Origin: Marinicella sp.
Lineage (GTDB): Bacteria; Pseudomonadota; Gammaproteobacteria; Xanthomonadales; Marinicellaceae
Assembly (NCBI GenBank): GCA_965230295.1
Contig: OZ246001.1
Coordinates: forward strand, 2,144,001 to 2,208,000
DNA length: 64,000 nucleotides
Direction of reading: 5' to 3'
Shown: piece after piece, positions 10,659 through 57,084 of the stretch
How positions within the stretch are numbered: the first letter of the stretch is position 1
Layout: each line of letters starts with the position of its first letter
Program-made: the position numbers and the translations under genes
The notes under the pieces: generated by a model
What the model saw: only the letters and a program-made list of their open reading frames with translations
What the model was told of the DNA's origin: nothing
Databases searched by the model: none

Positions 10659-10732
10659 GCCTAGATTTAAGCATAACTGCAGCATTGATAACAATGTTTT
10701 GAATTTATTTTCTGCTGGTAAGTGACACAGTG

Positions 10733-10846
10733 GAGAGCTGATGATCAGCTCGACCAGCGCAGGTCATGAGAATTTGACGGCTTACCGTGGTCTCGGTCTC
10801 TGTTCCCGACTCGACCCTAACACCGCTGTCCATAGCGGCGGCTTTC
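10733..10846 (+). ncRNA. putative structured small RNA (possibly sX9-like)
   Basis: GC-rich island in an AT-rich intergenic region. 5' gagagctg pairs with 3' cggctttc via G-U wobbles on the + strand. Internal hairpins acgg-ctta-ccgt and ccgct-gtccat-agcgg. Followed by a T run. Confidence 0.55.
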
Positions 10847-10944
10847 ATTTTTGTTAAGAACATATAATGAATGAAGACCCAAAAGCATTCCTTTTTTGGT
10901 AAGATTCATACACTGCCTACGGAACCAGTTTTGACACATTATTC

Positions 10945-23564: not shown

Positions 23565-24196
23565 AGGAATGTTCTTGGGGCTCCATTCTGGTTCATGGTC
23601 TGACAGGTCTTCATATTTGCTGCGCAAATAAACCGACCTTTACAGACTATTGTTTGAGCAGTTGCTTCGCACTGCATGTCTGTTCCAGACAAAAGTGAAA
23701 ACGACTGCTTACATGGATGTAAGTATGCAGCGATAGCAGGCAGGAATTGTTCCCAACAATTCTCTGCATTCACCCCGTCCTGGGGATCGATGCGGTAGCT
23801 GCCGAGGCGAACATGACTTGCTACCTCGCACGCACTACGGCATTCAAATCGGGCTTCTTTATCTTCGATAAAACCGCCCAACTTTCATTGCCTGTGCTAT
23901 AACGCCATTCACATAAGGTTTCTTGACTTCGTCAAATCACCATATGTTCATTGGCTATTCTCTTCGCCTCTGATTGGCTTACATGGAAGTAAGTCCTCTG
24001 AGGAGGCAGGATGCCGGTATCAGAGGTGACTACATGGATGTAGGTCTGCCGCGATAGCAAGGAGCGATAGCGGCCGCAACATCAATAGCTCACGGCTTAT
24101 CGCTCATTGCATAAAGGTTCCTTTGCTTCGCAAAACCACCTTTATTCCACTCACTGCCTAACCGGCTTGGCGGGTCAAGCTGCTCAGCAGCTTTCC
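23565..24196. repeat. composite modular repeat, copy A (scaffold with 7 first-level cassettes plus one nested insert)
   Basis: Six scaffold segments match 34884-35151 and 56170-56384 (AGGAATGTTCTTGGG...TGTTCCAGACAAAAGTGAAAACGAC...GCGAACATGACTTGCTACCTCGC...CTCTTCGCCTCTGATT...GCTCAC...AACCGGCTYGGCGGGTCAAGCTGCTCAGCAGCTTT) and are separated by hairpin inserts. Confidence 0.9.
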
Positions 24197-33468: not shown

Positions 33469-33838
33469 ATGAATGTCGCTTGCCTTCTTTTTCGCAAAGC
33501 GAAAAAACCGGCTGCGCTCCATGGCTTTTATGAGTCTTGCTCTGTATTGCTGGCGCAATCCAACCGCCATCCATTGGATGAATGTTGCTTGCCTTCTTTC
33601 TGTATCGCAAAAAACCGGCTGCGCTCCATGGCTTTTATGAGTCTTGCTCTGTATTGCTGGCGCAATCCAACCGCCATCCATTGGATGAATGTTGCTTGCC
33701 TTCTTTCTGTATCGCAAAAAACCGGCTGCGTTTCATGGCTTTTATGAGTCTGGCTCGCCTAGAGGGATGTAGGTGTGCCGCGTTAGCAGGATGCGGAAGC
33801 GGCCTGACTTGCTGGCGCAATCCAACCGCCATCCATTG
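33469..33838. repeat. tandem array of three 107-109 bp structured units, the third carrying a 48-bp inserted cassette
   Basis: Units start at 33469, 33578 and 33685, are near identical and have no spacers. Insert at 33756-33803. Confidence 0.92.
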
Positions 33839-34883: not shown

Positions 34884-35151
34884 AGGAATGTTCTTGGGTC
34901 TCTATTCACTTTTGTTCCAAACAAAAGTGAAAACGACCACGGCGAACATGATTTGCTACCTCGCGCTCTTCGCCTCTGATTGGCCTACACGGATGTAGGT
35001 CTGCCGCGATAGCTAGGAGCGATAGCGGCCGCTATAACAAAAGCTCACGGCTAATCAATCATTACATCAGGGCTTCTTTGCTTTGCAAAATCGCCAAGAT
35101 TGCATGATTTGCCTAACCGGCTCGGCGGGTCAAGCTGCTCAGCAGCTTTTC
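34884..35151. repeat. composite modular repeat, copy B (scaffold plus one X and one Y cassette)
   Basis: Same scaffold as copies A and C. Inserts at about 34982-35040 and 35049-35114. Confidence 0.9.
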
Positions 35152-51773: not shown

Positions 51774-51858
51774 CCGTACACTTCGACTCCGCTCAGGGTA
51801 CGGATGGTTCGTTGACTGAGTACTTCGACTGTGCTCAGCACAGGCTGCGTCGAAGTCA
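51774..51858. repeat. CTTCGAC-N4-CTCAG palindromic repeat cluster with a nested copy
   Basis: cttcgactccgctcag (51781-51796), and an inverted ctgag...gtcgaag (51816-51855) enclosing cttcgactgtgctcag (51823-51838). Confidence 0.7.
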
Positions 51859-56169: not shown

Positions 56170-56384
56170 AGGAATGTTCTTGGGGCTTCATTCACTTTTG
56201 TTCCAGACAAAAGTGAAAACGACCACGGTTTACGGCATTCACCCGTTACTTCTTTGCCATTGGCAAAACCGTAACGAATTCATTGCCTAACCTGCGAACA
56301 TGACTTGCTACCTCGCGCTCTTCGCCTCTGATTCGCTATGCTCACCAACCGGCTCGGCGGGTCAAGCTGCTCAGCAGCTTTCCT
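56170..56384. repeat. composite modular repeat, copy C (scaffold plus one Y cassette)
   Basis: AGGAA...TTCCT ends. Single insert at about 56228-56293. Overlaps the stop codon of the upstream gene. Confidence 0.9.
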
Positions 56385-57084
56385 ATGGAGGAGGTGTGTC
56401 GTGGCCATCGGCAAAGATCAAATCAGGTTTATCGGCCACTGTAATGTCATCGATGCTCCAGAAATACTCAAAATTCCCCGTCCATGACCACCGCATGGTG
56501 ACATCGGACTGGCCAGCAGCCACAGCACTGATGTCGAATGAATGCTTGGTTGGGTTGAACGACCATCGTACTGTGGGTGGAGCTGGAGAACCCGTGACTA
56601 AATCGGGGTAGGGGTTGTAAGTGGTCCAGTTTTGGCCGCCATCATTACTGACTTCAAACACAGCATTGTTAAGGGGGGCTATGGTATATGCACCGATGAA
56701 CCCTTCAAATTCAACATTCACTGAAGTTGCTGCGGACAAGTCCAATGTATCGGCTGTTAATACGCTGACATGGGTTATGTTGCCATAGATGTCAGAATCT
56801 AAAGTAACGAATCCATTGTTGGCTGTGGTTGATGCAAAAGGTCCCTGATCATTCAATGCATCATCCCACAGGGGTGGGCAGCCTCCGGTTGAGCCACCGC
56901 CTTGCCCGGCTGCAGGATCATCGCACCAAGTCCACAAAGCATTGTTCGGTGATGTGTCTTCATTGGTCCAGCCTGCAGGTATGCCATTAGCAAAGTCTTC
57001 CTGGTAATAGATTTCTCGAGCTTGACTTGCTGATGTGACTGCCATAAGTAACATGGCTGCATGAAGTTTGTTGTGTTTGTACAT
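56383..57084 (-). CDS. secreted jelly-roll (cleaved-adhesin/MAM-like) protein with a C-terminal DLIFADGHD motif
   Basis: Signal peptide (SQA-R), YQEDF.NG.P.GW, EVSNDGG.NW, W.IDDITV. Tail DLIFADGHD. RBS GGAGG. Confidence 0.78.
   Translation of the reverse strand: MYKHNKLHAAMLLMAVTSASQAREIYYQEDFANGIPAGWTNEDTSPNNALWTWCDDPAAGQGGGSTGGCPPLWDDALNDQGPFASTTANNGFVTLDSDIYGNITHVSVLTADTLDLSAATSVNVEFEGFIGAYTIAPLNNAVFEVSNDGGQNWTTYNPYPDLVTGSPAPPTVRWSFNPTKHSFDISAVAAGQSDVTMRWSWTGNFEYFWSIDDITVADKPDLIFADGHDTPPP

Follow-up and report, generated by a model that had tools for sequence, protein, structure and literature searches.

A folded, non-autonomous repeat family of Marinicella carrying nested hairpin inserts in five backbone regions

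How does a repeat of about 150 nucleotides (nt) come to hold different hairpins at the same places in different copies? The question arises from a 64,000-nt stretch of a Marinicella sp. genome (the window; positions 2,144,001-2,208,000 of the host genome, G000, which has 4,008,074 bp and 44% G+C), in which three repeat copies, A, B and C, had been recognized from the letters alone. The original prediction held that the three share one collinear scaffold and differ by discrete hairpin cassettes at five fixed sites, and that these cassettes are added, duplicated and swapped by a structure-directed mechanism acting in trans. Alignment confirms the three copies and their common scaffold, here called the backbone, at the positions collected in Table 1. 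On balance, we favor the reading that the family is a folded, non-autonomous mosaic repeat of ~149 nt that accommodates hairpin inserts, is copied as a whole unit and is shuffled by recombination.

A BLAST search of the host genome with copies A, B and C as queries yields 427 high-scoring segment pairs (HSPs) that merge into 122 loci, and A, B and C are thus not three isolated copies. We find 121 left ends (18-mer, at most 3 mismatches) and 78 right ends (24-mer, at most 4 mismatches), the pairing of which gives 68 elements; the 67 with a length of at least 140 nt form the set for most counts below. Copy A has seven further host copies at 92.6-95.9% identity across 619-632 nt, together with one additional match at 88.8% identity. 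The HSPs of the long copy A matches stop at element positions 1 and 632, and the loaded element is therefore sharply bounded and copied as a whole unit.

The copy C query matches in 19 of 23 other Marinicella genomes and in none of 17 genomes from other genera of the same family and order, while the copy A query matches in 17 of the 23. In named public records, exact matches to the right end and to a left-end pattern all come from Marinicella or from metagenome-assembled genomes labelled Marinicella, Lysobacterales or Gammaproteobacteria; viral contigs contain no family match. A, B and C belong to a Marinicella-confined, non-autonomous family of intergenic repeats that spans this marine genus and has ~100 copies in the host genome. 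The non-autonomous multi-copy family that had been proposed is thereby established, with 121 left ends and 67 complete elements.

The surroundings of the elements are less uniform than those of the three window copies. Each of A, B and C lies downstream of a minus-strand gene, as had been noted, but this does not extend to the family: the four classes of flanking-gene arrangement hold 21, 19, 15 and 13 of the 68 elements, with no preferred orientation to neighbor genes, in a classification that is rough in that its gene calls are a longest-open-reading-frame (ORF) approximation (3358 ORFs). Directly before the left end stands an A in 63 of 67 elements, the left flank being otherwise merely A/T-rich, and a G lies four bases beyond the right end in 52. 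The TA reported next to the ends of copy C is likewise not general (left flank in 29 elements, right flank in 10, both sides in only 4 of 67), nor was any other duplication seen at the ends; a TA target and a target duplication were rejected. The ends share AGGAA/TTCCT only; terminal inverted repeats beyond 5 nt were not found.

We note several departures from the standard form, which give hints on the behavior of the ends. In a 165-nt variant (G000:C1:701207-701371), the right end is an inverted left end of at least 24 nt and the element encloses a diverged site 1 insert; it is the sole classical inverted-repeat form seen. Four units of a 122-nt short backbone variant, each starting with a left end, are arranged head to tail at G000:C1:1313020-1313525. 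Similar head-to-tail junctions, with a left end directly after a right side, are present in metagenome loci L125, L126 and L137, and solo left ends also occur.

Site calls were made by aligning each of the 67 elements to one empty 149-nt copy. Extra DNA is found at backbone positions ~23, 50-58, 81, 98-104 and 109, and discrete inserts in these five regions account for the differences in length, in agreement with the original prediction. Site 1 is filled in 40 elements (87 nt in 33), site 2 in 22 (97 nt in 16, 65-66 nt in four, 48 nt in one and 30 nt in one), site 3 in 31 (64 nt in six, 129 nt in 17 and 154 nt in two), site 4 in 33 (mainly 55 or 106 nt) and site 5 in 26 (65 nt in 19, 51 nt in five and 131 nt in one). 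The elements display 17 of 32 occupancy patterns, with 16 elements empty, 10 fully loaded and 8 filled at site 1 only. Nine of the ten site pairs show all four combinations of presence and absence, and sites 4 and 5 are filled jointly in almost all cases.

Closer inspection reveals that site 2 consists of three close insertion points, at backbone ~50, 53 and 58, one each for the insert types Z, X and Y, and that it may be empty or contain X, X+W, Y or Z. Its contents in copies A and C are X and Y, as had been read from the sequence, with the X of copy A holding a W in addition. Unit numbers differ as well: one, two or three Y at site 3, one or two X at site 4, and one or two Y at site 5. Five discrete regions thus stand, but we take the "fixed sites" to be tolerated linker regions of a folded backbone, not single fixed phosphodiester bonds. 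Nor are empty sites perfectly clean, as had been claimed, since the empty form has 1-5 letters that are missing from the filled form (ACTTT at site 1, CAC at site 2 and G at site 3).

All four insert types (X, Y, W and Z) are small hairpin elements that occur nested. X comprises a pair of hairpins, of which the first has a CATGGATG-type loop; Y is an imperfect ~62-nt hairpin with conserved internal loops; W is 49 nt and Z about 49 nt long. A search with nhmmer locates 118 Y units in the host genome, 84 of them within the 67 elements and the remainder mostly in truncated or diverged family members, with a few elsewhere. The 97-nt insert of site 2 is an X with the 49-nt W in the apical loop of its second hairpin. 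W is present in 16 and absent in one of these site 2 X units (the 48-nt W-less form, G000 2017077), and in subfamily 2 it is present in four and absent in at least three copies of the X at site 4. Relatives carry W at the same X loop position (L036, L046), and one has it in the first-hairpin loop as well (L044); the two loop contexts have CA(G/T)GG^A(T/C)G in common. Z, common at site 2 in other species, occurs in both orientations, nested in Z (L015) and in Y at the same internal-loop position (L042, L123). Solo X or X+W also occurs in genomes that gave no backbone match (G003, G015). The nesting, the two orientations of Z and the solo X and W require real insertion and are not obtainable by deletion from a 633-nt master.

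Further hairpin repeats related to the inserts or placed within the family were observed. At loci L047 and L048 of genome G018, where backbone matches are very few, a ~49-nt unit akin to the first X unit of site 4 is repeated 3-5 times in tandem, and every such array closes with a complete CCTACATCCATGTAGG-type hairpin downstream of genes. Three Y-core hairpins lie ~125 nt apart (G000:C1:2499655-2499950) in a 660-bp intergenic region without a backbone. Another small repeat, the third, forms a ~27-30-nt hairpin whose TGAGCGGAGTCGAAG-type loop is conserved; it is present at ~51779-51797 of the window and at no fewer than 48 host sites; it is often paired or clustered, and its stems covary (GTTCAC/GTGAAC or GCTGGC/GCCAGC). 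This hairpin also sits within the loop of a backbone hairpin (H1, described below) in an element at G000 381610 and in relative L017, and a 24-nt insert at ~G000 2290358 is a probable second H1-loop case.

Analysis of the backbone reveals a fold made up of a left-end mini-hairpin, hairpin H1, a long-range 6-bp helix P1 (backbone nt 5-10 with nt 61-66), a partial long-range helix P2 and a terminal hairpin. Whatever their load, 83 of 101 elements have P1 hexamers that are complementary at every position, while 2000 shuffles gave 60.3 on average and 69 at most; copy A has its P1 strands 240 nt apart. Five complementary P1 pair types occur among the 101 elements, with more in other species (GTGTTC/GAACAC, ATGATC/GATCAT and ATGTCT/AGACAT). 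To evaluate the fold as a whole, 61 distinct empty copies from the host genome and its relatives were aligned with MAFFT and scored for P1, H1, partial P2 and the terminal hairpin. Here 90.6% of cells are paired versus 80.2% after shuffling, 18 of 28 pairs show changes on both sides (reached by none of 500 shuffles), and covariation scores 0.294, where shuffles give 0.108 and slid partners 0.04-0.08, with the reservation that the copies are related and the shuffle controls therefore overstate significance. The independent compensatory P1 types are hard to explain otherwise, despite the kinship of the copies. P2 is only partly supported: two of its five pairs covary cleanly, but pairing at the other three is poor in the main subfamily (66.6% of cells). 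The Y fold is Watson-Crick in 611 of 671 cells from 61 distinct units, with 3-4 pair types at several positions.

The inserts are arranged around this fold. The P1 loop encloses sites 1 and 2 and the P2 loop sites 4 and 5, with site 3 between P1 and P2; no insert site interrupts a helix. The site 1 insert, which has a diverged homologue in subfamily 2 and in metagenome locus L141, remodels hairpin H1. In addition, conserved unpaired motifs are present across species.

The two strands do not fold equally well. In the orientation read here, A.C mismatches exceed G.T mismatches by 27:5 in P1, H1 and the terminal hairpin and by 31:8 in Y, or 58:13 in total. An A.C mismatch on one strand corresponds to G.U or G.T on the other, and the usual leading-strand mutation bias would push in the direction opposite to this excess. 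For the consensus, the folding energy is -39.6 on the complementary strand versus -16.8 on the strand read here. From the A.C excess and the folding energies, the complementary strand therefore seems to be the one whose fold matters.

Orientation relative to replication is also biased. With the origin placed at ~1.70 Mb and the terminus at ~3.84 Mb from cumulative GC skew, the strand read here is on the leading-strand sequence in 51 of 67 elements (76%; binomial p=2e-5), and the same orientation holds for 16 of 18 empty copies and 81 of 121 left ends. Of the ORF-called genes, 60% run in the direction of replication; gene orientation does not explain the bias of the elements, since these show none toward their neighboring genes. 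One possibility is that copies with the better-folding strand on the lagging-strand template are lost more often. The long-range pairing, the strand asymmetry and the replication-orientation bias all go beyond what had been noted from the window.

Table 1. Family members in the window and the parts of copy A, in window coordinates.
Feature	Position	Strand	Basis
Copy A, 632 nt, all five regions filled	23565..24196	+	Backbone alignment, BLAST
A: left end, 24 nt, with 5' strand of P1 (ATGTTC, 23569-23574)	23565..23588	+	Left-end consensus, P1 covariation
A: site 1 insert, 92 nt in place of ACTTT; Y-like hairpin, then second hairpin	23589..23680	+	
A: backbone segment S2, 3' arm of hairpin H1	23681..23705	+	Helices 2 and 3
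A: site 2 insert, X (two hairpins) with nested W	23706..23805	+	97-nt form class
A: W, 49 nt, in apical loop of X second hairpin	23741..23789	+	Present/absent in two X lineages; relatives L036, L044, L046
A: backbone segment S3, with P1 3' strand (GAACAT, 23809-23814)	23806..23829	+	P1 covariation
A: site 3 insert, tandem Y pair (23830-23898, 23899-23959)	23830..23959	+	
A: backbone segment S4, 5' strand of partial helix P2	23960..23975	+	Helix 4
A: site 4 insert, tandem X-type pair (starts 23976, 24030)	23976..24098	+	
A: backbone hexamer GCTCAC, separator of sites 4 and 5	24099..24104	+	
A: site 5 insert, Y unit, rarer allele (51-nt class, 5 elements)	24105..24159	+	
A: backbone segment S6, terminal hairpin and right end	24160..24196	+	Helix 5
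Copy B: X at site 4, Y at site 5, other sites empty	34884..35151	+	Backbone alignment
Copy C: single Y at site 2 only	56170..56384	+	Backbone alignment
Fourth family member, diverged, internally shortened, Z insert at site 2	10731..10892	-	
Solo X, no backbone around	~33749..33806	+	

The alignment of copy A merges sites 4 and 5 (classes 102/58 and 105/113), and the rarer site 5 allele is present in it all the same. At the right border of copy C (56384-56390), the neighboring gene has a minus-strand TAG stop that takes in the final nucleotide of the element, and the C-terminus of the encoded protein differs from its G003 orthologue just ahead of the stop.

Comparison with relatives provides a view of the copy C locus with and without the element. 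Its flanking genes are ~110 nt apart in G003 versus 322 nt here, and the difference fits the 215-nt element. The orthologous locus in G003, the one relative in which it could be compared, is accordingly empty; the intergenic DNA is too diverged for exact placement of the junction. In relatives, the usual form of the element is the empty one of 149 nt.

Evidence for shuffling comes from the copies themselves. Single-nucleotide polymorphism (SNP) haplotypes of the backbone (positions 19, 50 and 70) are common to empty, partly loaded and fully loaded copies, which ectopic recombination or gene conversion can explain without repeated site-specific insertion. Similarly, the two Y alleles of site 5 differ only in an apical stem-loop that is identical to the stem-loop of the site 3 Y. 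The combinatorial pattern is most simply attributed to recombination or gene conversion among copies. The proposal that inserts are added, duplicated and swapped survives for the nested insertions, the one to three units per site and the differing types at site 2; for the combinations, recombination would suffice.

Taken together, the favored reading has the following steps. The ~149-nt backbone would fold as a single strand, and hairpin elements of 45-100 nt would insert into it and into each other's loops. Insertions would persist only in unpaired linkers or hairpin arms; with only those outside helices persisting, the sites would look fixed. Loaded backbones would be copied whole to new intergenic places, and recombination or gene conversion among the ~100 copies would reshuffle modules and SNPs. 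Mobility may proceed via a single-stranded, replication-coupled intermediate, with an enzyme that is encoded elsewhere or is a host function.

Several observations weigh against this reading. No cognate enzyme was found in the host genome by Pfam transposase searches or self-BLAST; the one rve gene has no family ends nearby, and self-BLAST shows no multi-copy insertion sequence (IS). The 67 elements show no target duplication and no clear target motif, and the 1-5 letters that distinguish empty from filled sites are not predicted by simple cut-and-paste insertion. The fold statistics are inflated by kinship, as stated above. No recent insertion or loss was caught among relatives that are distant (73-81% identity for the gene next to copy C in other species), and short-read contigs of public runs collapse at the repeat; in four such runs, contigs end at element borders, and the joints found at module borders derive from paralogous copies, not alleles. 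Finally, the folding strand is the complement of the strand read here, and it is the latter that serves as lagging-strand template in most copies. Replication-orientation bias is known for the single-strand transposons IS200/IS605, but with the folding strand not on the lagging template the family does not fit the IS608 model without added assumptions.

The search for a mover deserves description. Among transposase-type Pfam families, the host genome has one Y1_Tnp and one rve match only, with no IS110, RVT_1, DDE_3 (IS630-type), DDE_Tnp_1, TnpB-type or Transposase_31 match. The RAYT (REP-associated tyrosine transposase), IS200/605, IS630 and reverse-transcriptase genes with matching flanks that the original prediction proposed to look for were not found in G000 by these searches. 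No ORF-carrying element lies between family ends in G000, where inverted left-end pairs enclose ordinary genes only, and 28 metagenome loci contain no inverted left-end pair. We also observed a 1745-bp duplicate (G000:C1:1827740-1829484 and 3240985-3242729; 99.9% identity), neither strand of which has an ORF above 119 aa.

The Y1 match is a RAYT-like gene of 187 aa (G000:C1:1669261-1669821; L014:1300-1860), whose protein scores 67 bits against NF047646, below the cut-off of 80, and 39.9 bits against PF01797, above the cut-off. It is flanked by separate hairpins resembling repetitive extragenic palindromic (REP) sequences, of the form GGAGCG-stem-TTCA-stem-CG, with ~30-40 dispersed copies and covarying stems; a REP-like core, GACTTCAGTC, has 41 exact matches in G000. 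The RAYT gene and the GGAGCG hairpins are a classical REP/RAYT pair, distinct from the backbone family. Near relatives of this protein are confined to G003, G023 and G012, and a further point against the favored reading is that the protein query finds none in G019 or G021, both rich in backbones. We therefore rejected the RAYT as mover of the family, its flanking REPs being another family and its distribution not following the backbone. With the sole Y1 gene thus assigned to its own REP family, a structure-directed mechanism supplied in trans gains no support.

A bolder version of the favored reading would treat the family as undescribed mobile DNA, with a replication-oriented folded backbone as a landing pad for X, Y, W and Z, which would enter linkers and loops, their own among them, with no recognizable transposase, and with a host replication or repair function or a novel enzyme as the agent. 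We regard this version as possible, if doubtful. If it is true, few mobile elements known outside cyanobacteria would be smaller than these modules.

The same fold could instead belong to RNA, with the copies as structured non-coding RNA genes or cis-acting modules of untranslated regions whose high copy number reflects the retention of useful RNA and not selfish mobility, and with the inserts as expansion segments tolerated at peripheral loops. The compensatory changes in P1 and the hairpins, the unpaired motifs conserved across species, the avoidance of helices by inserts and the G.U-type asymmetry in favor of one strand (58 vs 13) would all suit an RNA, as would the conserved internal loop of Y, which on the complementary strand can be read as tandem purine-purine mismatches beside a U.G-closed stem. 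However, copies A and C have no sigma-70-like promoter or terminator, scans giving nothing above shuffles, and the elements have no orientation preference to neighbor genes, while in 76% of copies transcription of such an RNA would run head-on against replication. There is no Rfam match for it even at E up to 5, the Rfam 15 search of the window having given none at gathering thresholds and only chance-level matches for A and C (E of at least 0.79). Moreover, sharp borders shared by ~100 copies, left ends standing alone, head-to-tail arrays and an orthologous site without the element are typical of mobile DNA. An RNA role is, in our judgment, rather unlikely as the explanation of the family.

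It could also be that nothing inserts at present, that a small number of insertions or in-place duplications are ancient, dating to the genus ancestor, and that all variety stems from unequal recombination and gene conversion among copies and among paralogous hairpins. That the same sites are filled in distant species would suit this account, tandem X and Y could come from unequal exchange, and the site 5 Y allele whose apical stem-loop matches the site 3 Y looks like a short conversion tract; the haplotypes common to different occupancy classes and the junctions that are off by 1-5 letters point the same way. What this leaves aside is the presence of Z in both orientations, of W in two loop contexts with a common CA(G/T)GG^A(T/C)G, of X and W outside any backbone, including in genomes without it, and of three different elements at three points of site 2. 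Those four observations require real insertion events, possibly old, and we consider recombination as the whole account to be unlikely. That short copies are progressive internal deletions of the 633-nt form, by excision of hairpins during replication, is very unlikely: hairpins are deletion-prone, module borders all lie at hairpin feet, the 633-nt form has eight near-identical copies including A, and partial deletions are obvious in 1584051, 2721839, 2487720 and window 10731-10892, but the empty form is the commonest here (16 of 67) and predominates in other species, including several without the inserts in question, unrelated inserts (X, Y and Z) share one site region, modules are recursively nested, and the empty form has an intact H1 with ACTTT, letters missing from the filled form. 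Nor are the copies deletion products of a known IS or intron.

The favored mosaic reading bears on a long-standing gap, as to our knowledge the origin, spread and uniformity of REP, BIME (bacterial interspersed mosaic element), ERIC (enterobacterial repetitive intergenic consensus), BOX and SDR (small dispersed repeat) sequences are poorly accounted for, a mover being known for few families. A complete, IS-poor genome offers clear handles on it: a testable fold, four nested modules with defined insertion points, a folding strand and a 76% orientation bias. The family may become a model for how tiny elements spread with replication, or for how recombination shuffles modules. Such repeats also break short-read assemblies and could serve as strain-typing markers in Marinicella. 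We found no published description of the family among the papers listed by searches on Marinicella repeats and on small dispersed or nested hairpin repeats, the latter leading only to the REPIN paper and to citations of Elhai et al. 2008.

How, then, does the family compare with known systems? As a generic structured single strand it is well described, having compensatory base pairs that include long-range ones. It was rejected as a miniature inverted-repeat transposable element (MITE), with no terminal inverted repeats, no TA duplication and no autonomous partner with the same ends, and as a REP or REPIN family served by a RAYT, the RAYT here being flanked by other hairpins and not following the backbone in its distribution. 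An integron attC reading was prompted by GCCTAAC at the 3' edge of some Y units; it was dropped in view of the lack of a paired RYYYAAC/GTTRRRY core site, no inverted partner being present on the same strand (no integrase search was made).

With IS200/IS605 elements the family shares the absence of inverted repeats and of target duplication, hairpins near the ends, a replication bias and the distinction of one strand. It differs from them in that no matching TnpA or TnpB was found, in that there is no strict 4-5-nt target at the left end, and in that the strand favored by wobble pairs is the complement of the lagging template strand. As an IS200/IS605 derivative it was accordingly rejected: the replication orientation agrees, while a conserved target at the left end and a cognate Y1 are missing.

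In the BOX elements of Streptococcus pneumoniae, one variable module (boxB) lies between two fixed ends, and ERIC is a long imperfect palindrome with internal insertions. Both resemble the present family in the variable number of internal modules or in insertions at particular positions of a conserved repeat. We know of no BOX or ERIC element with four nested module types or with a non-palindromic backbone held by long-range helices.

The family also resembles the BIME, REP and REPIN sequences of E. coli and Pseudomonas, since these too are intergenic, high in copy number and built of variable hairpin modules with compensatory changes, without terminal inverted repeats or target duplication; here, by contrast, the modules are in direct orientation and in set regions of a 149-nt backbone with long-range pairing. 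The SDR elements of Nostoc and its relatives, which Elhai and colleagues are said to have described in 2008, are reportedly 21-27 nt long, nested in themselves and in minitransposons, marked by compensatory changes and confined to cyanobacteria, and we know of no enzyme for them. Small hairpin repeats nested in themselves are equally a feature of this family, with W in X, Z in Y and Z in Z. Its modules, however, are 45-100 nt long, its host is a gammaproteobacterial genus and it has one dedicated backbone; given the differences in size and host, the family would work in a similar way without being an SDR member. The reference list of the REPIN paper (PMC3116915) includes Elhai et al. 2008 (Genome Res 18:1484). 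In sum, by analogy the family appears most like the BIME/REP mosaics and the nested very small repeats of cyanobacteria in how it would work.

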